The notes below the pieces were generated by a model. The model was not told where the DNA came from and did no database searches. It worked only from the letters and a program-made list of their open reading frames with translations. DNA of 64,000 bases from an uncultured Acinetobacter sp. (GTDB lineage: Bacteria > Pseudomonadota > Gammaproteobacteria > Pseudomonadales > Moraxellaceae): the NCBI RefSeq assembly GCF_947626835.1, contig NZ_CANQTS010000008.1:1039-65038 (forward strand). The letters are read 5' to 3'. A program made the position numbers and the translations under genes. Positions 1 to 10,223 of the stretch are shown in pieces. Positions within the stretch are counted from its first letter, which is position 1; each line of letters starts with the position of its first letter.

Positions 1-1019
1 GGCTGTTTCTCAAAAATATATTTATCACCGTATGAATAGGATTTTCCTCTATAGAATGTCTTACTTACTATCTCATCAAGCAGGGGTTTAAATGGTGCAA
101 TAACACTTTTAGTCTTTCCACTTCTTGTCACATAAAGTTTATCATCATACGGATAAAAAACCTTTCCAGTCATATAAGATTGAATTTCTTCAATATATAT
201 ATCTAAAAAGCTAGTTTCCGGACTAACACAAGTATAATCACCGTAATCAAATGACACGTTTTTTTCTTTTAATTTCTTAAATACTGTAACTTCCTTTCTA
301 TCAATAACCTTATTTTTTTTTGTTTCAATAAGTTCAGTTATAACTTTAGGAATAGTTGACCCCGATACTATAATTCTTTCAAATTTACCTAAATCTAGAT
401 TATCTAGAAAGTCTATGACCTGCTTGCTAGATGTCTCGATATCTTCTACGACCCTTAAGTCAAAAATAAGAATAATCTTTTCAAAGGCAGCCTCAAGATT
501 TGCTAGGCAATCTTCAAACTCATACTCAATGAACTCATAATCCTCAAAGGCCGACTCAGTCAATCGAATAGCAACCTTATCCTTTAAAAATACGCCTGCT
601 TTTGCACTAGCTATAACACAATTTAAATGCTCTGGTACTCGATCATCAACACCACATACAGGTATCATTCCGAGAGGCGCAAACTCATCTATAATTGTTT
701 TATAATTATATGTTTTACCATCAATTTTAACTAAAGGATCTATATCATAATTATCAATAAAAATATCATCCAAAAAATTAAGCTTAGTAGTCAGATATTT
801 TTTTTGAGCTTCAATTTTCTTTTTTAATGCCTCAGTTTTAAATCCAAGTAACTCTTCAGGAGAAAAAGAATTAACACCGTCATTATGCGACTTTGAAGGA
901 AGTTCATTAGGTAAGTCAAAAAATACACTTAGACCTACTTTAAGATCATCATCTAAGTAATTTAAAGCATAAACCTCATTCATTTTAAATTTTAAAAATG
1001 GAATATATTTAGAGTTCAT
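1..1019 (-). CDS. Beta-family protein (phage P4 beta / PF14350-like), 3'-truncated by the window edge, at least 339 aa
   Basis: Translated by hand: open from ATG at 1019 to base 3 with no stop. MNSKYIPFLKFKMNEVYALNYL..IPVCGVDDR..VAIRL..ILIFDLR..IIVSGSTIP..IDRKE..YGDYTCVSP..KVFYPYDDKLYVTR..FYRGKSYSYGDKYI matches the Beta-family motif order (YxPxLKxKxxExxAL, GDY, SxGDxxI) as recalled. Start overlaps the upstream stop by 11 nt. Not in the ORF track. Confidence 0.75.
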   Translation of the reverse strand, partial: MNSKYIPFLKFKMNEVYALNYLDDDLKVGLSVFFDLPNELPSKSHNDGVNSFSPEELLGFKTEALKKKIEAQKKYLTTKLNFLDDIFIDNYDIDPLVKIDGKTYNYKTIIDEFAPLGMIPVCGVDDRVPEHLNCVIASAKAGVFLKDKVAIRLTESAFEDYEFIEYEFEDCLANLEAAFEKIILIFDLRVVEDIETSSKQVIDFLDNLDLGKFERIIVSGSTIPKVITELIETKKNKVIDRKEVTVFKKLKEKNVSFDYGDYTCVSPETSFLDIYIEEIQSYMTGKVFYPYDDKLYVTRSGKTKSVIAPFKPLLDEIVSKTFYRGKSYSYGDKYIFEKQ

Positions 1020-1836
1020 AGTTAATTTTATATTCCGCTCTTAATTTTGAGTAACTGGCCCAATCATTATTTTCAAACGATAGCCTCCCTGCAATAATAC
1101 TTGGATGAACTTCGAATAGCTTCGAATAACTAGCCAAGTCTTCTAAATTTCTTGTGGTTTTAATAGTTCTCCAAATTGCATTTGGGATCATTACTTCCCT
1201 CGCAAGTTTATTTGCTTGCTTCTCTAATTTATTTATATCTACATCGGAACTTTCTTCAAAATAGTCGACAATAGGTTCATTAAGTTCTTCAAAGTGTAAT
1301 ACGATATGGGACAATTCATGAAGTAACGTAAACCAAAAACTATCTAAATTTTTTAGTCTTAAAGACATAGCAACAACAGGCTTTTCATTAACTTTTAAAG
1401 AGACACCGTCTACTTTCGTACCTTCTTTAGCCATTTCGAAAATTAGGTATATACCTTGTTCTAAAAGAAAATTTTGTATGGCTATCAAATTGGTTTCTTT
1501 GATAAATTTATCAAAGAATACTCGAAGAAAATCTCTGTTTATACCAGTATAAGATTTATCCAAAAAACCATCTAAAAATTTAGCTTTACCACTTACAGTA
1601 GACACCCAAAAATCAATTAAATATTGATCAGCTGAATCTGTTTTCTTAAATAAACTTTTAGTGGGACTATTACGATATATATTAAAAAAGTTATGATAAT
1701 TTTCATTGTTAATACCTATTTTCTTTTTAACATTATCAGGCATTTGCAAATAATATGAATGAAATACATCAAATTCATTAAAGATTGCAACACTATTAGT
1801 TGAATAACAACCTATTGATTCTATTTCCAAACTCAT
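1009..1836 (-). CDS. ImmA/IrrE-family Zn metallopeptidase lacking an N-terminal HTH
   Basis: FWFTLLHELSHIVLH (HExxH), downstream EKQANKLA (third-ligand ExxAN motif), KVDGVS..PVVAMSLR typical of HigA-associated peptidase domains. ATGA overlap with the GNAT stop. Confidence 0.85.
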   Translation of the reverse strand: MSLEIESIGCYSTNSVAIFNEFDVFHSYYLQMPDNVKKKIGINNENYHNFFNIYRNSPTKSLFKKTDSADQYLIDFWVSTVSGKAKFLDGFLDKSYTGINRDFLRVFFDKFIKETNLIAIQNFLLEQGIYLIFEMAKEGTKVDGVSLKVNEKPVVAMSLRLKNLDSFWFTLLHELSHIVLHFEELNEPIVDYFEESSDVDINKLEKQANKLAREVMIPNAIWRTIKTTRNLEDLASYSKLFEVHPSIIAGRLSFENNDWASYSKLRAEYKINYEL

Positions 1837-2513
1837 GCTACTGCTCCAATAATACTTGAAACTTCATGCTCTGGTAATTCAAAATACTTTAATGAAGGTT
1901 TATCATTACTTTCAACATGTTGCATCTTTAATTTATTAATATAATAACCTTCAGCTTGCGTTAGCGAATGTAATGAAAAACGTCCAGAATTTTTATATTT
2001 ATTTGCAAGATAAGTAATTGCTTTTAATAGCAATAATCTTCCTAGACCCTTATTTCGTTGATCTTCGATAGGAGTATAACGATTCCATGGAGCAACAGCT
2101 AAATACTCCACATAGAAAATATTTTCTGAAGGGTTCAAATAACTATCTTTAGGAAAATAAATTAAGCATGCAGCTTCTACTTTTGAGTCAATTCTAAGAT
2201 AGAACCATTCATTACAATCATCAGTTTTCAAATTATAAGTTTTATTTAACCATTTCCAATGCCAATCCTGCGAATCAATTTTTTTTGCTAGTTCAATCGC
2301 TTCTTCTTCAGGTAAGGTTTTTAGATAAGCCATAACTTGTGCATGATATAGCTTCCACTCCTGATCACAGTACAGGGATTTTTCAAAACTGTATCCGTTA
2401 GAAATTTCTAATAATTGTCCAGTCGGCAAAAATTCTGAATGAATAATTTGCTCATTAGGTGATTGAATTAGAATTCCATAACTCTTCAACTGATCTAAAA
2501 TAGACTGTCCCAT
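1833..2513 (-). CDS. GNAT-family N-acetyltransferase
   Basis: YVEYLAVAPWNR..QRNKGLGRLLL contains acetyl-CoA motif A (R-x-x-G-x-G); SLHSLTQAEGYY is motif B-like. GGGGTG Shine-Dalgarno before the ATG. Confidence 0.8.
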   Translation of the reverse strand: MGQSILDQLKSYGILIQSPNEQIIHSEFLPTGQLLEISNGYSFEKSLYCDQEWKLYHAQVMAYLKTLPEEEAIELAKKIDSQDWHWKWLNKTYNLKTDDCNEWFYLRIDSKVEAACLIYFPKDSYLNPSENIFYVEYLAVAPWNRYTPIEDQRNKGLGRLLLLKAITYLANKYKNSGRFSLHSLTQAEGYYINKLKMQHVESNDKPSLKYFELPEHEVSSIIGAVA

Positions 2514-2630: not shown

Positions 2631-3992
2631 ATGACTTCAAAAAACACACGCCAACTTCACCATTTGATTAAAGATGGCCTTGATGAAAACGAACTTAAGG
2701 CACACCTTCAAGCTATCGAAGAGCTGTTTGGTAAAGAATACCTAAATTCTTCAATTGCTAAAGGTGAATTACCTATTCTTTGGAAGCGTTTGGATTTTAT
2801 ATGCACTAATGAATTAATCACGCTAGGTATGGCAATATCTAACTTAAAGGCGAAAAAAAATCCTCAAATTGATGAGTGGTTAATTTCAACGGCTAAAGCT
2901 GTAAAAAAACATTCAAAAAATAAAGGGCGATCAAATGGCTTCATTCGAGAAATTATTTATTGTGGATCAATTTGTGATTCAATTGGTGAAGTTTATCCTG
3001 CAAAAAAGGCTCAACAAGGCTATGACTTAGAGATCAAAACGACAAATGTTGATTTTGTAACGTCTTTAAAAAAATTTGGTAAATCAGACAATCATAAAGA
3101 GTTTGAAACTTTTTGTAATCAATTAGCTAATGTAGTAAAGCATAAGGCTACATACTTCAAAAAAAATGTTCATGTATGTATTATTTTAAGCCAAAAATTA
3201 GATGAAGAATTATTTCAACGTCTTAAAAAAGTAATTTCCAATGCAAAAGATATTGATAATATTGAATATTATGAAAATGGCATTTTAATAATGTTTTCTC
3301 GACCCTTAACTATTGAAGACCTAAGCCTTAATAGTGCAAGTTGGCAAATAAACGTCTTATCACCTGAGAGTAAAAATGAACAGGATAGATTTCTAAAAAA
3401 AATCATTCAAGAAATTTCCAATATGAAAATAACGTTGGATGCTTCATTAAATCATAACTCATTACGCACACTTCATGTAAATGTTAATGAGAACTGTGAC
3501 ATGGATTCTTTACAAGAAAAATTAGTACGCCATTACAAAGGCCACGATGATATAGGTGTGGATATTGTTATGATCCATAAATCAGCAATATGTGAAAGTA
3601 AATCGTCGAACAAGTTGAAAGACATTGAAAAAGCTATCTACCATGATATAAGACCAATTAATTTTGAAAAGAATTTATCAAAAAGAATGCTGCATTTTAT
3701 AAATACAACAGATATCTCCTCAGCTCCTTTGAAAATGAATTGTGGAATCGGTATGTTAGCAAAAATACCATCTGGTACTTTTGCTGGAATAGATACAATT
3801 AATAAATATAACTTTCAAAAGGGTATATATTATTTTGATATGAAAAGGCAAAAAGATGGCAGTTGGTATGCTGACTTAATTTCTGTTACTCCCAAAGGTA
3901 TTCAATGCGAAATACTCCTACCCAAAAATTTAAGTTCATCAATCATAGGGAGTAAAATTACTCCTCCCCATGATGATTTATTAATTGTCTAA
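2631..3992 (+). CDS. Hypothetical 453-aa island cargo protein, possible PD-(D/E)xK nuclease fold
   Basis: Long ORF with AT-rich codon use. Helix-E (GFIREII), GYDLEI and SLK in a spacing compatible with a restriction-endonuclease-like active site (inference). Confidence 0.6.
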   Translation: MTSKNTRQLHHLIKDGLDENELKAHLQAIEELFGKEYLNSSIAKGELPILWKRLDFICTNELITLGMAISNLKAKKNPQIDEWLISTAKAVKKHSKNKGRSNGFIREIIYCGSICDSIGEVYPAKKAQQGYDLEIKTTNVDFVTSLKKFGKSDNHKEFETFCNQLANVVKHKATYFKKNVHVCIILSQKLDEELFQRLKKVISNAKDIDNIEYYENGILIMFSRPLTIEDLSLNSASWQINVLSPESKNEQDRFLKKIIQEISNMKITLDASLNHNSLRTLHVNVNENCDMDSLQEKLVRHYKGHDDIGVDIVMIHKSAICESKSSNKLKDIEKAIYHDIRPINFEKNLSKRMLHFINTTDISSAPLKMNCGIGMLAKIPSGTFAGIDTINKYNFQKGIYYFDMKRQKDGSWYADLISVTPKGIQCEILLPKNLSSSIIGSKITPPHDDLLIV

Positions 3993-4409
3993 GTTTTTCT
4001 TAAGTAATGGTCTATCTAGTGTTGCCAAATTCACATTAGGCATTTGAGATAGATTATATTGCCATCGTCTGTACTGGTCTGCCCATAAACTTTCTTTTTC
4101 TTCAAGTAGCTTTTTCAAATGTGAAATTTGGCTTCTTAATTCTTCATTCTCTTTGATCAGCATATCAATAGTTACATCGCCCATTGAGGCTATAACAGTC
4201 GATTTTGCCTCTCTAAGCGTCTTTTTTCGAAGATTAAAAGCCTGTTTTACAGACTCATAGCTCATTAAGGTAAATTTAGAAATAGAGGGTTTATCTAATG
4301 CTCTAGCTACTGACACTGCAAAAAGATCCCAAGTTAGCTTACCGGACCATTTATTCAAAATACTCTCAATAATTTTCATTTCTTTGACGTCAATGAATTT
4401 ATGTTTCAT
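3981..4409 (-). CDS. Small accessory recombination protein, GinD-like (helical N-terminus plus coiled coil)
   Basis: Last gene of the coupled recombinase operon (ATGA overlap). Heptad segment LIKENEELRSQISHLKKLL. 142 aa. Confidence 0.65.
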   Translation of the reverse strand: MKHKFIDVKEMKIIESILNKWSGKLTWDLFAVSVARALDKPSISKFTLMSYESVKQAFNLRKKTLREAKSTVIASMGDVTIDMLIKENEELRSQISHLKKLLEEKESLWADQYRRWQYNLSQMPNVNLATLDRPLLKKNLDN

Positions 4410-6565
4410 AAGTCACCTTGCAATAATGCTAAGAATGAATTTTTTGACTCATTCACTATCTGTTCAGACATTGGATTCTTTTCATCTACTTTATTAATTA
4501 AATTCTGTTCACCTAATGCAATTTTTGTCAGGCTAACGTCTAACTCTTCTGGAATACGAAGTACTAGTCCATCAGGTAATTTATCATCTTCTAGATATTT
4601 CAATAATGTCTTAATAATAGCGAGTTTTTTACCATGGTAAATTAACCAAGTATTTGCACCATGAAAGCCTTCTTGCATAGCGACAGCAGCTCGATTCAGT
4701 TCATTTTGCACAACATCTTCTAGCTGCTTGAGATGTTCAACATTTTTCGGCAATCCTTTTACACATGCATGCTCTTTACAACTGATACATTCACCTGCTT
4801 TAGTACAGGGTGTCATTGTCCAGTCATGCTCACAGTATCCATAACCTGAGACTTGTACTGTACCTATTCGATCTTTACGCCCCAGCATTTCAAATGTCAC
4901 AGGTACATTAACTTTGACAGCTTCCAAAGCGGTTGTGCCATCCAAACTTTCTAATCCGAGTTCTAAAAGTTTTCTAGATTCAGCTTTAAACTCACTCATT
5001 GGTCGCAAATCATAAGCACGATTATCTTCAATTCTTGAACGTCCAGCAAACATAGCTAGATCCAGAGAATCCATCTCACCACGCTCTGCCATCGTGGATA
5101 GCCAAACTCTAATTTGATGGGAGGAAATAACTATCTCACCTCCATCTTCATTTTTAATACCTAATTCACTGAATAGAGAGTGTGTACCAGGTAATCTCTG
5201 ATGTATTGCACCTAATGCATCATTTAGTAAATTTAGATTTGGACATTCAAAACTATACTTTTTGGGTGCAAATTCAATATGAAATTCATTCTCTCGAACC
5301 AAACACAATAGATCACAAATCGGCTTATCAATTTCAGCTATTTGGGGCCAACTTGGGAATTTTTTCTTATATTTTTCAACAGTGAATTGAGCTAAGTCCC
5401 TGTAAGTAACATAACTCTTTGCACCAATGAGATTTGCAACCCATTTTTGTCTATATAGTTTCTTAATAACCTCAGTATTTGTGGATATACTTTCTAAACT
5501 TGTAGAAATATCTACTAAATTGAATGCAGCAGCAAATTCACCAACTGTAAGTGGTGCATCTTCATCGTGTTCCTTAGATGTTATACAGCCATCATGCCGA
5601 TAAAATTGACTGGATTTCTCAATAGCCCATTTTGCAGCTTTTCTTGCAGGCTCTCCAATCATAATTAGTCGCTTAACAGCTTCCTTAACTGTAGGTGCTA
5701 TTAACGGATGAACAGGCTTGGAAATAAGACCCCCACCTTTTTCAGCCTTCCATCGAATATAAAGAATTGTTGTTTCTTTATCCTCAAGCTGCTGAGTTTC
5801 CTCATTTCTTACTTTTTCACTATGAGTTTCTTCAAACAAACAATCTACTGTTAAAAAACTTAACTCCCCACCACGACTAGGAGCACACATCAGTAAGACA
5901 GCTTGAGCTGAATAAAATTTTTGATAAGCTGTTGTTGCTAATCTGAATGCATCAGCTAATGCTGTAATTTCAAAACTTGTTAATAGCCTATCTTTTTGCC
6001 ATTTTCTATCTTCTTCTGATGTTCCTTGTGCTTTATTTCCAGGCCGTTTCCACGGATTTGTCCATACAGGAATAGTTATATTAATTTTAAGAAGTCGCAA
6101 ATCTTCTAAAAATTTTTCCAACATTTGTCCATAACGGTATCTTGAAGATTCAGAACTCCGTTCATAAATCATCTCAGTAATCTTTCTTAATACAATCCCA
6201 TCAAGTAGTAAAACATCTGCCTTAGAGTAAACAAAGAGTAGTGCATCATGACAAGTCTTTAATACCATCATCATGTTACCGGGATTTGTTGCATTCCATG
6301 TTTGGCTATCTCTTACATAAGCTTTAGCAAAATCAACAAAAGGGGGTTCCATCGGAGAACCAGTCTTTCTACCTTTTTCCGCTAAACCAGTAAATTCCAT
6401 AGATTGAGCACGACCATTAGCTAAATAATGCTTCCAATTTGAGCTACTGAAACCACCTTGATCTTCATAAATAGTTAACTGATTCTTGGCCCGATAAATA
6501 AAATCATTTAAGTTCTTTTGACAATCTAATTCATGTTTGGGGAAAAATGGAATAACTTCACTCAT
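4406..6565 (-). CDS. Large tyrosine recombinase, GinC-like
   Basis: APSRGGEL (Arg I), KAEKGG (Lys), SSHQIR (HxxR), AGRS..RAY (His II replaced by Arg, Tyr kept). C-terminal CEH..C..C..C..C cluster. Confidence 0.85.
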   Translation of the reverse strand: MSEVIPFFPKHELDCQKNLNDFIYRAKNQLTIYEDQGGFSSSNWKHYLANGRAQSMEFTGLAEKGRKTGSPMEPPFVDFAKAYVRDSQTWNATNPGNMMMVLKTCHDALLFVYSKADVLLLDGIVLRKITEMIYERSSESSRYRYGQMLEKFLEDLRLLKINITIPVWTNPWKRPGNKAQGTSEEDRKWQKDRLLTSFEITALADAFRLATTAYQKFYSAQAVLLMCAPSRGGELSFLTVDCLFEETHSEKVRNEETQQLEDKETTILYIRWKAEKGGGLISKPVHPLIAPTVKEAVKRLIMIGEPARKAAKWAIEKSSQFYRHDGCITSKEHDEDAPLTVGEFAAAFNLVDISTSLESISTNTEVIKKLYRQKWVANLIGAKSYVTYRDLAQFTVEKYKKKFPSWPQIAEIDKPICDLLCLVRENEFHIEFAPKKYSFECPNLNLLNDALGAIHQRLPGTHSLFSELGIKNEDGGEIVISSHQIRVWLSTMAERGEMDSLDLAMFAGRSRIEDNRAYDLRPMSEFKAESRKLLELGLESLDGTTALEAVKVNVPVTFEMLGRKDRIGTVQVSGYGYCEHDWTMTPCTKAGECISCKEHACVKGLPKNVEHLKQLEDVVQNELNRAAVAMQEGFHGANTWLIYHGKKLAIIKTLLKYLEDDKLPDGLVLRIPEELDVSLTKIALGEQNLINKVDEKNPMSEQIVNESKNSFLALLQGDL

Positions 6566-8115
6566 GCTCTTATTTCCTGCATTTGAATGCGCTTATCACA
6601 CGCATCTAAAATGGCTTTTACACGAGATAATTGTAAGTCATAAGATTTTATAACTAATTCGCTAGCACCCTCTTTATGTCGCTGTTCAACTTCTTCTAAT
6701 AAATCTAAAAACAATTCATCCCAAGGTGCATAAAGTAAAGGTTGAAATTGATCACATAGCAGACATGCTTTCATACCAGCTTGACATGATGGAGAGCCTC
6801 CACAATTACCAATCTGTTTATTGTCCCCCTTATAAATTCTGCTAGCAATATCTTGTCCTCGTCTAGCTTCTCTCTCATCCTCGATTAGTCGACCTTCAAA
6901 TTTAGTAGCTAGGAAAGTCATAGGATCATTCATGTGCTCAAAGATGCGTAAGGCCAATTCATGGGTATGAGCTGTATAAACTTTCAATTGTTGAGTATCT
7001 GAATGATCCATTAAATATGCCATTTGAACTCCCGTGATTCCATGTCGAACCAAATTTGTTGCACGAGTTCGTCTGCATCGTACTGGAGTAAAGTGAATAT
7101 AATCTGATGTTCTTTCAGAAATAGCGTCACACTTTCTGGATAAACTTGTAGTTAATGTATAAACATCTTTAATTGAAGCATGAAGATAATCAGGTGTCGT
7201 CTTCAATTTTTCTCTAAATAACTCTAATGAATTGACTACTTTCAATCTATTAATATTGAAAAAAATTGGAAGCTCTTTTAAGTCTTCTTCTGTTAATTTT
7301 GGTATGTATTTTCTAGCTGCTTGCTTGTTTTGCTCAGTTAAATTTTTCAAAACCAAGTACATATCTTCACTAATATATATTAATCGTGATTCTCCCCTAA
7401 ACTCACCACCTCTTTGTTTAGCTCTAGGAATTTCAAGCTCGTATTTTAGACCATCAACACCCTTTTTAACTGTTAAATCGACTGCTCTTAATGCTCGAAT
7501 CTGATTTGGTCGGCGAGCCGTAGAATAAATTGTATAGAACCATGCAAACTCTTCTAAACTAATTAATCCGCTTTTAAATGCATTCCCAGCCCATACTAAC
7601 AGTGATTGTTGTTCAGTTAATGTATATGGACCTGTATAAGGACAATGGTGAGTAACAGCCTTTCCTTTAGTATTTCCCGCTAATACAATCTTATCTAAAA
7701 CTTCTTCAACACCAATAGTTAAGCCATTAAATCCCCAAGAGATCCAACTACGTAATAGGGCACGAATAGTTCCTAATTTATATTCATCTTCTTTACTTAA
7801 ACTAGCTTTAATATTCAAAATCAATTCAGGTGTAATAAGTCCACCATCATAAATATCTGTATCTAGGAGGTATCTTCTAAAATAATTCCAACAATTATGC
7901 GTGTAATGAGCTGATACTTCCTCAGCTAATCTTGCAATTGTTAAGCGGAAACCCTTAAGTACTTCAGGATGGATTTTTTTATTTACAATATCCCAGTTTA
8001 TTGTCAAAGAATTATCTAAAGACCACAGAGAATTGAAAAAATCAAATCCATAACCAGCCTTACTTAATCGTGTGTCGAGATAGAATTCAGCAACATCTGA
8101 ATAATCGTGTTTCAT
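6562..8115 (-). CDS. Tyrosine recombinase, GinB-like
   Basis: TARRPNQI (Arg I), PRAKQR (Lys), PVRCRRT (HxxR with His lost), MDHSD..KVY (His II, Tyr). C-terminal C-x5-C-x6-CxxC cluster. Confidence 0.85.
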   Translation of the reverse strand: MKHDYSDVAEFYLDTRLSKAGYGFDFFNSLWSLDNSLTINWDIVNKKIHPEVLKGFRLTIARLAEEVSAHYTHNCWNYFRRYLLDTDIYDGGLITPELILNIKASLSKEDEYKLGTIRALLRSWISWGFNGLTIGVEEVLDKIVLAGNTKGKAVTHHCPYTGPYTLTEQQSLLVWAGNAFKSGLISLEEFAWFYTIYSTARRPNQIRALRAVDLTVKKGVDGLKYELEIPRAKQRGGEFRGESRLIYISEDMYLVLKNLTEQNKQAARKYIPKLTEEDLKELPIFFNINRLKVVNSLELFREKLKTTPDYLHASIKDVYTLTTSLSRKCDAISERTSDYIHFTPVRCRRTRATNLVRHGITGVQMAYLMDHSDTQQLKVYTAHTHELALRIFEHMNDPMTFLATKFEGRLIEDEREARRGQDIASRIYKGDNKQIGNCGGSPSCQAGMKACLLCDQFQPLLYAPWDELFLDLLEEVEQRHKEGASELVIKSYDLQLSRVKAILDACDKRIQMQEIRA

Positions 8116-9482
8116 TAAACCTCTCCAATTCTTAGATGTTCATCAATTCTATTTTGTTCATTTTTTAGTAGTTTCTCTGCCTGCTCTTTAGTATGTCTCA
8201 AATTATAAACTGTGGCAGAATCAGCACTACGATGACCATTTAGATACATCCTTTGTTCTATTTCCTTTTTTTCTGAAATAACATCATTTAACCTGCCTTC
8301 CTCTACTGCTAAAGCATTGTTTGTATCAATAATTTTAGAAAATCTATTATTAAAATTATGTCTAAAGCTGTGTTTGGTTAGAGTTCTAGATGTAGAAAAA
8401 CCATTTTTCTTAATAAAATCGGCTAGTTTTTCACTAACAGCGACTTTCTCTACCATTTTAGAAAATTGAATTAGTGACAATGGATCCCCTTTACTTTTTC
8501 CTTTATTTGAAACAAACAAAAAACTATGTGATTTTGTATTAGGTATTTCTCTACGCTCATATAAAATATAATTTCTAAGTTCATTAGATAGTTTACGTGA
8601 GATAGGAATATCTCTTTCTTCAGTTTTTGCATTCGGTTCGAATCTACGCTTTGTATCTTCGGGATCGTTATGCCTTCTTCTTACTTGAATTGCTGAGTCC
8701 GAAAAATCAATATCTGTAATCTTTAGCTGTAATATTTCACCCGTTCTCATACCTGTTTCATAAAGCACTCGAAACAATAAATAATTTCTAGTTCTAACAG
8801 CAGAAGTAAATGGATTCATTGGATTCTCTAAATCAACAATCCTCATGACTTCATCAAAGACTTCGGCAGGAGGTGCCTTTCTATCAGGATCAGTTACTTT
8901 GTTTCTGGAACTACGGCCTTTACTCTTTTGATTCAAAATATTGCTTTTAATTCGAGATATTTGATCTAAGTAAGCTGAAAAAGAAGGTTTAGATCTTAAG
9001 ATATTGATTGCTAAAAATTCAAAATATTCTGCGAATTCATGAATTCGACCTATTTGTTGCTCTACCCCCACTATTGGATCAGGGATTTTACTTATCGGAG
9101 ATATGAATTTAATTAAGTTATCATTTCTTGTTTTTTTCGATGAGGCTTTTAAATTTCTTCTCGCAGCTTTTGAAGTTAATTTACAATGATGGCCAATCTG
9201 ATGGATTTCATTTGTCGTAAATAAATCATCATTTAGTATTTTAGTATGGTCATTAAATGCACGGATTATCTTGTCTGATAAACGTTCACCTACAATTTGT
9301 TCCCAAATATTGATATGAACCAAGTTGTTTAAATGTGCTCTTTGAGTAGCCTGAGTCTGAGATCTCACTTTAGTAGTCATATAGAGTGTAGTCCAGAAAT
9401 CAGGAATACCATCTTCATTAACTAACAAAGTAAATCGCTCACCCTCTTGAGCTATGAAGTTTTTACGGTGTAAGTCAGACAT
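8115..9482 (-). CDS. Tyrosine recombinase, GinA-like (start corrected to MSDLHRK)
   Basis: ETGMRTGE (Arg I), AKTEER (Lys), KHSFRH (HxxR), NGHRS..TVY (His II, Tyr): complete catalytic set. TAATG overlap with the next gene. The ORF-track start at 9542 runs through the AT-rich dyad region. Confidence 0.9.
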   Translation of the reverse strand: MSDLHRKNFIAQEGERFTLLVNEDGIPDFWTTLYMTTKVRSQTQATQRAHLNNLVHINIWEQIVGERLSDKIIRAFNDHTKILNDDLFTTNEIHQIGHHCKLTSKAARRNLKASSKKTRNDNLIKFISPISKIPDPIVGVEQQIGRIHEFAEYFEFLAINILRSKPSFSAYLDQISRIKSNILNQKSKGRSSRNKVTDPDRKAPPAEVFDEVMRIVDLENPMNPFTSAVRTRNYLLFRVLYETGMRTGEILQLKITDIDFSDSAIQVRRRHNDPEDTKRRFEPNAKTEERDIPISRKLSNELRNYILYERREIPNTKSHSFLFVSNKGKSKGDPLSLIQFSKMVEKVAVSEKLADFIKKNGFSTSRTLTKHSFRHNFNNRFSKIIDTNNALAVEEGRLNDVISEKKEIEQRMYLNGHRSADSATVYNLRHTKEQAEKLLKNEQNRIDEHLRIGEV

Positions 9483-9495
9483 ACTTAAGAATAAT

Positions 9496-9519
9496 AAATA
9501 CAATGTTTTATATTGTATA
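9496..9519. repeat. Dyad AAATACAAT-N7-ATTGTATA, inner copy
   Basis: ATACAAT gttttat ATTGTAT at 9498-9518, 15 nt upstream of the first recombinase ATG. Confidence 0.7.
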
Positions 9520-9554: not shown

Positions 9555-9590
9555 AAAAAAAATAAGAACCCAATCTAAATCAGGTTCTTA
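9555..9590 (-). terminator. Rho-independent terminator downstream of ssb
   Basis: TAAGAACC-N12-GGTTCTTA stem followed by T8 on the minus strand. Confidence 0.65.
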
Positions 9591-9599
9591 CTCTATCTT

Positions 9600-9624
9600 A
9601 AATACAATATTTAGTTATTGTATA
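9600..9624. repeat. Dyad AAATACAAT-N8-ATTGTATA, outer copy; candidate att core
   Basis: ATACAATA tttagt TATTGTAT at 9602-9623 (8-bp arms, 6-bp spacer), 3 nt after the ssb stop. Confidence 0.7.
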
Positions 9625-9626
9625 GT

Positions 9627-10223
9627 CTAAAATGGTAAGTCATCGTCCATATCCGCAGGTGGTTGTGCAGCAGGCGCTTTAGGCGCAGCTTGCGGTGCAA
9701 AACCACTTGGGTTGTTGTTGCCATAACCATTTTGATTTGGCGCAAAACCACCTTGGTTGGCATTATTGGCATAACCACCTTGGTTATTGTTATAGCCGCC
9801 TTGATTAGCATTGCCATAACCACCTTGGTTATTGTTGTTAAAACGCGGTTGACCAAAACCACCTTCTTGTGCCGCGCCATCACTTTGACCACGTGAGTCA
9901 AGCATTTGCATTTGATCACCACGGATTTCGGTGCTGTAACGCTCTTGACCGTTTTGATCAGTCCATTTACGGGTACGTAATGAACCTTCAATATAAACTT
10001 TTGAGCCTTTTCGTAAATATTGCTGTGCAATTTCACCTAAACGGTTATTCAGCACAATACGGTGCCATTCGGTTTGTTCTTTACGTTCACCGCTGGCTTT
10101 ATCTACCCAAGCTTCACTGGTTGCAATTGAAAATTGAGTAATTGAACCACCATTTGGAAAGCTTTTGGTTTCCGGATCTTTACCCAACGTACCCACTAAA
10201 ATAACTTTATTTACACCACGCAT
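9627..10223 (-). CDS. ssb: Single-stranded DNA-binding protein
   Basis: [13 protein letters not shown]-fold, EWHR motif, N/G/Q-rich linker, acidic tail DDDLPF. Start corrected to MRGVNK. Confidence 0.98.

Follow-up and report, generated by a model that had tools for sequence, protein, structure and literature searches.

Directly downstream of the ssb gene of an uncultured Acinetobacter lies a block of four genes, three of which encode proteins of the tyrosine-recombinase type, and this raises the question to which class of mobile element the block belongs and how it came to reside next to ssb. The DNA that was analyzed (hereafter the window) is a stretch of 64,000 nucleotides, positions 1039-65038 of contig C8 in a 2.56-Mb Acinetobacter assembly of 54 contigs. 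We consider it very likely, on the basis of sequence comparison, that the four genes constitute the ginABCD recombination module of a GInt (Genomic Island with three Integrases). GInts move cargo without the help of conjugation or phage genes; they have received little study, and tests have been confined to a Pseudomonas model. Both the class and its use of ssb as a target were already known, and the known picture of the class is left unchanged. What the locus adds is useful but modest: a 7-nt crossover core derived from natural sites, a tandem array, a near-universal use of ssb, catalytic-type residues in GinC and clusters of four cysteines (Cys4).

Class of the four-gene module

The four co-directional open reading frames (ORFs) of 455, 517, 719 and 142 amino acids are located on the minus strand, directly downstream of ssb. 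They were compared with the module ECs_3512-ECs_3509 of E. coli O157:H7 Sakai as the GInt reference, and the arrangement is as follows:

9627-10223, minus strand: ssb, the host target gene (Pfam SSB, 4e-37); the crossover core is made up of its last two codons, CCA TTT, and the initial T of the stop
8115-9482, minus strand: ginA, tyrosine recombinase of 455 amino acids (PF00589, 2e-17; 28% identity to ECs_3512)
6562-8115, minus strand: ginB, tyrosine recombinase of 517 amino acids (NF041502, 419 bits; 25% identity to ECs_3511)
4406-6565, minus strand: ginC, protein of 719 amino acids with a predicted tyrosine-recombinase fold (similar to ECs_3510)
3981-4409, minus strand: ginD, protein of 142 amino acids, predicted to be all-helical (27% identity to ECs_3509)

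The end of ssb (9627) is separated from the first recombinase ATG by 144 nt, and a gene for an MFS transporter lies upstream of ssb. A preliminary description of this DNA, made from the sequence alone, had reported the four ORFs as being coupled by overlaps, which may entail a fixed stoichiometry of the products, and these overlaps are all present: TAATG at the ginA/ginB junction (GTTTAATGAAA), and ATGA at the ginB/ginC (GCATGAGT) and ginC/ginD (TTATGAAA) junctions. The same description had placed the element at 3981-9482, which is correct for the gin genes but not for the island itself, as this runs from 9628 past the window start to C8:196-202. The GC content from the window start to around position 9600 is 0.30-0.36, versus 0.41 genome-wide. 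A scan of the Proteobacteria, using one genome per species, yielded 80 loci with GinC relatives in the Gamma-, Beta- and Alphaproteobacteria (66 of them with enough upstream sequence to be informative on the target), and the order A-B-C-D is retained in most of the 80.

GInts have been described as carrying the genes ginA-ginB-ginC-ginD, and in Pseudomonas neither excision nor integration takes place unless all four are present (PMC5385486). Idola et al. (2023, Additional file 10; PMC10214605) give ECs_3510 and ECs_3509, two genes of the Sakai module, as a ginC-ginD block. When the four proteins were compared with this listed module by BLASTP, each matched the Sakai protein at the same position: GinA matched ECs_3512 (E 1e-32), GinB ECs_3511 (9e-29), GinC ECs_3510 (6e-15 and 1e-12) and GinD ECs_3509 (7e-10). 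The likeness to the ginABCD layout of the Pseudomonas GInts, noted in the preliminary description together with the suggestion of a profile comparison, is supported by this position-for-position homology. The gene order in Sakai is identical, whereas the identity to this one GInt module that was compared is low (~25-28%), the Sakai proteins are shorter (401, 437, 543 and 132 amino acids) and the module sits elsewhere, in a region annotated as prophage Sp17, beside ypjA.

Further sequence traits by which GInts are recognized were found as well. Three integrase-type genes and a small one after them are closely coupled and point in the same direction, and each product is homologous, via the Sakai module, to the corresponding Gin protein. 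The island is tripartite, with the gin operon at the 5' end, cargo starting at the ginD stop and a short AT-rich 3' end, and its insertion is site-specific with imperfect direct repeats of ~10-17 nt. The GInts reported at ssb by Bardaji et al. (Sci Rep 7:46254), those of P. syringae UMAF0158 and AZ84488, Shewanella baltica BA175, Ralstonia solanacearum PSI07 and Opitutus terrae, are described with the same three parts, without transfer genes, and with imperfect direct repeats of ~10-13 nt that overlap the ssb stop and leave SSB unchanged. The present element differs from these in that another GInt adjoins it in tandem.

The other four-gene recombinase island of the Gammaproteobacteria, the strand-biased circularizing integrative element (SE; intA-tfp-intB-srap), would differ in its movement, as its circle is copied out and no empty site is left behind. 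SEs form a sequence cluster separate from the GInts, and their core genes have been noted in Acinetobacter (Idola et al. 2023, Mob DNA 14:7; PMC10214605). They have much of the same appearance, with four genes that encode an ordinary recombinase, a pair of large proteins and a small one at one end of an island lacking mobilisation genes, and with target specificity and a 6-7-nt crossover. Nevertheless, an SE is a very improbable identity for this island. Against the eight proteins of SE-6283 and SE-6945 of plasmid pSEA1 (NZ_AP024167.1), BLASTP gave the four proteins generic catalytic-domain similarity only (E 0.018 and 0.054), and the proteins of 517, 719 and 142 amino acids had no significant match to Tfp, IntB or Srap of these elements, the third and fourth matching nothing at all. 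Orthologues of Tfp and Srap, and the order intA-tfp-intB-srap, were not recognized here. Moreover, the second SE protein, Tfp, is described as non-catalytic and lacking the motif, with a large catalytic IntB in third place, whereas the protein in second place here is a recombinase that conserves Arg, Lys, Arg and Tyr.

Even less probable is a trio of another kind, either a RIT (recombinase in trio) or a GMT/Tn554-like module, both of which were compared by their descriptions. Three adjacent, overlapping recombinase-type genes are what a RIT would show, but RITs measure ~3.5 kb in total and consist of three ordinary-sized recombinases without a fourth gene, whereas the present module spans 5.5 kb, encodes recombinase-type proteins of 455, 517 and 719 amino acids and has a conserved fourth gene. 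The GMT islands (Mahata et al., bioRxiv 2023.03.28.534373) and Tn554 resemble the island in being rich in defence cargo, in having recombinase genes at their 5' border and in inserting at a dyad-symmetric target, with inverted repeats around a spacer. These have only three genes, however, encoding GmtY, a GmtZ of the Phage_Integr_2 type and a StbA-like GmtX, whereas Pfam finds only PF00589 in the four proteins here and the GinD model had no significant StbA-like or other match in the PDB. Given the gene-for-gene homology to the Sakai module in the same order, the unmatched SE proteins and the unfitting RIT and GMT layouts, we assigned the module to the GInt class. The RefSeq accessions of the family members had no match among the entries of the GInt and SE lists of Idola et al., which cover complete genomes only.

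Insertion into the last codons of ssb

Six of the 11 GInts surveyed by Bardaji et al. (2017), from different phyla, are located at the 3' end of homologous ssb genes; there attL shares sequence with the end of the gene, whose product stays the same, and repeats such as CCGTTCTAAT or CCGTTTTTAATT are found. The question raised in the preliminary description, whether ssb is a documented target, had thus been answered for GInts in general, although the genus Acinetobacter is absent from the tables of that paper; our literature search found no paper that combines Acinetobacter, GInts and ssb. A survey of Acinetobacter genomes, as had also been suggested, brought out both empty and occupied ssb 3' sites. 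In relatives with an empty site ssb is directly followed by a terminator and ahpC (at least five have ahpC next to ssb).

To define the crossover, the occupied site of A. lwoffii S1047-1 (genome G170; Gin proteins 85-96% identical) was paired with the empty site of genome G009 (locus L012):

attB, G009: left ..gatgacctt, core CCATTTT, right gatctagaacgg..
attL, G170: left ..gatgacctt, core CCATTTT, right AGACTATACAATAAC..
attR, G170: left ..TATACAGTTAA, core CCATTTT, right gatctagaacgg..

Between the two genomes the host flanks show 97.5% and 100% identity across 200 nt, and the 7-nt CCATTTT, single in G009, is duplicated in G170, as results from a precise insertion. Given this flank identity and the duplication of the core, the exchange is placed within CCATTTT, which spans the codons for Pro and Phe together with the initial stop base. 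Upon insertion the stop codon changes from TGA to an element-supplied TAG and the SSB protein remains unchanged. The same core is found at both ends of the island under study:

9629-9635, minus strand: attL core CCATTTT, in the context ..gactta CCATTTT AGACTATACAATAAC..
C8:196-202, outside the window, 836 nt left of its start: attR core CCATTTT, in the context ..TATATAGTTAA CCATTTT agtacaccc..

Its attL reads ACTTACCATTTTAG and its attR GTTAACCATTTTAG, with T[T/A]ACCATTTTAG in common. The comparison of these sites shows that the element entered the last ssb codons by conservative site-specific recombination inside CCATTTT.

When the ends are joined in silico, the circular form would carry an attachment site with dyad symmetry, TATAGT-TAACCATTTTAG-ACTATA. 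The predicted circle junction is ..TATAGTTAACCATTTTAGACTATACAATAAC.., and the predicted deletion junction in S1047-1 is the ssb end joined to TCTAGAACGG; in the genome under study excision would join the ssb end to the left end of the neighbouring GInt, which belongs to a second lineage. The target would be the coding sequence of the universally conserved C-terminal tip of SSB (..D-[IL]-P-F-stop). Such a target would explain why 64 of the 66 informative loci, in Alpha-, Beta- and Gammaproteobacteria, have ssb on the same strand and within 900 nt of ginA.

In several empty ssb 3' flanks (loci L004-L006, L010-L012, L015 and L017) the final ~20 nt of ssb recur as an inverted pseudo-copy, 0-10 nt past the stop (e.g. 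gatgatgatcttccgttttaaCTTATCAAAACGGTAAATCTTCATC), so that another core, CCGTT(T/C)T, is present in reverse orientation. Earlier GInt traffic may have left this pseudo-copy as a scar, or it may serve as an additional landing pad or form a hairpin.

Element ends and Gin proteins

The element measures 10,471 bp (C8:196-10,666) and extends from the ssb stop (window 9628) leftwards. Its GC content is 0.32, compared to 0.41 for the genome, and drops to 0.147 in the 211 bp at the 3' end (C8:203-413). This stretch of 15% GC before attR corresponds to the 'short AT-rich 3' end' in the definition of a GInt. The region between ssb and ginA contains the following features:

9602-9624, minus strand: outer dyad TATACAATA-N6-TATTGTAT, element DNA adjoining the core
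9559-9594, minus strand: intrinsic terminator, element-borne and now serving ssb
9498-9519, minus strand: inner dyad TATACAATA-N5-CATTGTAT, near-identical to the outer dyad

The comparison with the empty site identifies the outer dyad as element DNA that is distinct from the crossover. It is conserved in the lineage-1 elements (loci L036-L040), including the 55%-identical element of genome G151, in which the whole dyad-terminator-dyad arrangement is kept, and it is probably a recombinase-binding (P') site. The inner dyad overlaps a sigma-70-like promoter (TATACA-17-TATTAT), 15 nt before ginA, and is possibly an operator. The native ssb terminator has been displaced beyond the array and is seen after the second attR (attR2) on contig C2. 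Furthermore, the exact 10-mer ATTGTATTTA occurs three times within 11 kb, in one orientation and always at the element ends, two copies being part of the dyads and the third lying 124 nt inside the right end. The dyads and the ATTGTATTTA copies are candidate binding sites for the recombinases or for GinD.

Conservation within the proteins was evaluated over 58-70 homologues (70 for GinA) and, in the case of GinC, over 26-30 sequences. In GinA the residues R246, K286, H371, R374 and Y426 are conserved, H417 less so. GinB scores 419 bits against NF041502 ('site-specific integrase'), an NCBIfam equivalog with a cut-off of 350 bits, and conserves R202, K233, R348 and Y380, the first His position being occupied by a Val. 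A conserved Cys4 cluster (C438/C444/C451/C454) is found at its C-terminus.

GinC had no sequence match in Pfam, NCBIfam or the PDB. Its AlphaFold2 model (pLDDT 82) has full-length Cre, XerH and Tn1549 Int as best PDB matches and also matches IntI, with TM-scores of 0.5-0.6 on the target, and its invariant residues (R231, K276/K283, H483, R486, R509 and Y518) fall, in the model, on the secondary-structure elements that hold the catalytic residues of Cre. The model thus points to a Cre-like tyrosine-recombinase fold. Conserved cysteines are present at positions 578, 587, 593 and 596, accompanied by H599 and C601; Sakai GinC keeps two of the four. GinC has been described as lacking the first Arg (Bardaji et al. 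2017) or the RHRY motif (Idola et al., PMC10214605). Unlike in the alignment of Bardaji et al., where the motif is incomplete, the Arg, His-x-x-Arg and Tyr positions are kept in GinC of this clade, and R231, H483, R486 and Y518 are invariant in the 26-30 sequences, Sakai GinC included. Loss of the motif is thus not general in the listed family, for which reason we did not take it as a defining property. GinC carries residues of the catalytic type, and DNA cleavage by the protein is putative.

In both GinB and GinC the Cys4 cluster follows the catalytic domain, and the clusters are probably zinc-binding modules; no mention of them was found in the accessible text of the GInt papers. Together with the catalytic-type residues of GinC they are possible guides to why three recombinases are needed. 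The model of GinD (pLDDT 80) consists of a small N-terminal helix bundle and a long helical hairpin, and a fold search with it gave no significant PDB match; the residues W21, G23, L25, T26, W27, R115 and W116 are invariant.

Considering these features, GinA, GinB and GinC, which keep Arg, Lys, Arg and Tyr, may assemble on the site of the circular form and on the ATTGTATTTA repeats at both ends, and the small helical GinD could act as an accessory DNA-binding or directionality factor. One may go further and propose that, in the ssb-targeting clade, all three are active tyrosine recombinases that form a hetero-oligomer, joined via the Cys4 clusters, in which every member has its own strand or half-site to cleave, and that the codons of the SSB tip are a near-universal landing pad that lets unrelated GInts stack in tandem. 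We advance this proposal tentatively, as one that has some chance of being right but is rather more likely to fail.

Tandem array, putative mobility and cargo

The preliminary description did not include a tandem array, yet the island was found to be part of one. The 118 nt past the first attR (attR1; C8:78-195) are 94-97% identical to the stretch between the ssb stop and ginA of lineage-2 Acinetobacter GInts, the Gin proteins of which are only 26-29% identical to those here. An insertion sequence (IS) cuts contig C8 after this 118-nt left end. Contig C2 opens with the opposite end of an IS of this type, followed by a gene for a protein of 117 amino acids, a Sel1-repeat gene (550 amino acids), an attR-like end (TATATCCGTTTTAAGG) and then the terminator and ahpC. 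The end TATATCCGTTTTAAGG resembles the right end (GTGTATATCCATTTTGA) of a complete 6.2-kb lineage-2 GInt in genome G056. The simplest reading of these sequences is an array in the order ssb, GInt-1, GInt-2 remnant, ahpC. GInt-1, the island under study, would have landed in attL of a resident, distantly related GInt-2, which would later have lost its gin genes through an IS-associated rearrangement.

A lineage-2-type left end (CACACCCTAGAGAG..) past the ssb stop was also observed in genomes G002 (locus L008) and G018 (L018). G002 yielded no GinC homologue, which points to a further GInt remnant without gin genes beside its ssb.

Among 201 Acinetobacter species genomes, the one under study included, 18 contain a GinC homologue. 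At least 13 of the gin modules (again counting our own) are located directly after the MFS and ssb genes and represent two lineages; five lie elsewhere, and for two the contigs are too short for the position to be assigned. The clinically relevant genus Acinetobacter can thus be added as a regular host of GInts, with at least 13 of the 201 species genomes occupied at ssb. Where both ends could be placed, the elements measured 6.2, 10.5, 16.3, ~18.7 and ~20.5 kb. A second, apparently identical lineage-2 gin module that does not adjoin ssb was seen at locus L047 (G137:C1:2810321-2819686). In A. lwoffii GC2 the Gin proteins are 91-96% identical to those here, whereas the flanking MFS and SSB proteins are only 83-84% identical. 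A comparison within the species gave a related picture: in a conspecific metagenome-assembled genome (locus L062) the gin region is 95% identical and the defence cassette of the cargo 89%, with other DNA replacing the gene of 453 amino acids next to ginD. These differences in identity point to horizontal transfer of the gin elements and turnover of their cargo.

Several observations weigh against the account given so far. Membership of the GInt class is based on a transitive link, via the Sakai module listed by Idola et al., and not on the archetypal GinABCD of Pseudomonas, and the functions of the dyads, of the ATTGTATTTA copies and of GinD are inferred. With respect to the array, the IS flanks on C8 and C2 lack a shared 9-bp duplication, which three other pairs of contig ends do have, and metagenome contig L033, with the same ahpC flank, runs into a TCAD9-domain gene that is absent from the genome under study. 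Given the missing duplication and the extra gene, an IS-associated deletion is likely. As to mobility, an empty site was not found within the species: in look-ups of the exact SSB and AhpC proteins every metagenome contig with an identical ssb was occupied, and the ahpC contig recovered in this way carried a right-hand remnant only. Present-day mobility is deduced solely from the intact genes and the distribution across species.

The occupancy of every contig found with the identical ssb allele would also fit an island that is a GInt by descent but has become fixed and immobile in its own species, its tandem partner having already decayed. The loss of gin genes from the neighbouring GInt and the numerous IS copies in the genome agree with such a history, and Bardaji et al. 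report that no empty sites were detected for several GInts. On the other hand, the four genes are intact and possess every conserved residue, both ends and the core are intact as well, and the 95%-identical gin module with partly different cargo in the conspecific genome, like the 91-96%-identical modules in other species with flanks of only 83-84% identity, speaks against fixation. We therefore regard fixation as unlikely, although it deserves far more weight than an assignment to another class of element, and favor the reading of a GInt with its recombination module intact.

The cargo of the island consists of the following genes:

2631-3992, plus strand: protein of 453 amino acids of unknown family, overlapping the ginD stop at 3981-3992
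1833-2513, minus strand: GNAT (Pfam), coupled to the defence cassette
1009-1836, minus strand: M78 peptidase, like PD-Lambda-2_B (PADLOC, 1.9e-44)
from 1019 leftwards beyond the window start, minus strand: Beta protein, like PD-Lambda-2_C (PADLOC, 1.2e-34)
just outside the window, convergent: P4 cII-like gene (PADLOC, 4.5e-27)

Judged by these matches the cargo beyond the gene of 453 amino acids appears to be a cassette related to the PD-Lambda-2 defence system. Genes for transfer, replication or phage structure were not found in the island, in line with the earlier remark that no relaxase, phage or replication genes were in view, which holds for the part of the island within the window. Considering that the cargo is a phage-defence cassette, the ssb 3' flank can be viewed as a defence-island hotspot in Acinetobacter. 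In the lineage-2 remnant of a near-identical strain (contig L033, positions 1-1157) a gene with TCAD9 and response-regulator domains was observed, which is further conflict-system cargo at the hotspot.

The IS that cuts the second GInt, recognizable by the terminal sequence GGCTTTGTTGCACAAA, is present at 16 contig ends of the genome (C2, C8, C9, C11, C13, C16, C22, C28, C30, C33, C34, C36, C40, C44, C53 and C54) and at one internal site in C40, and accounts for much of the fragmentation of the assembly. Target duplications of 9 bp are shared by the contig pairs C22/C34, C36/C30 and C44/C54.

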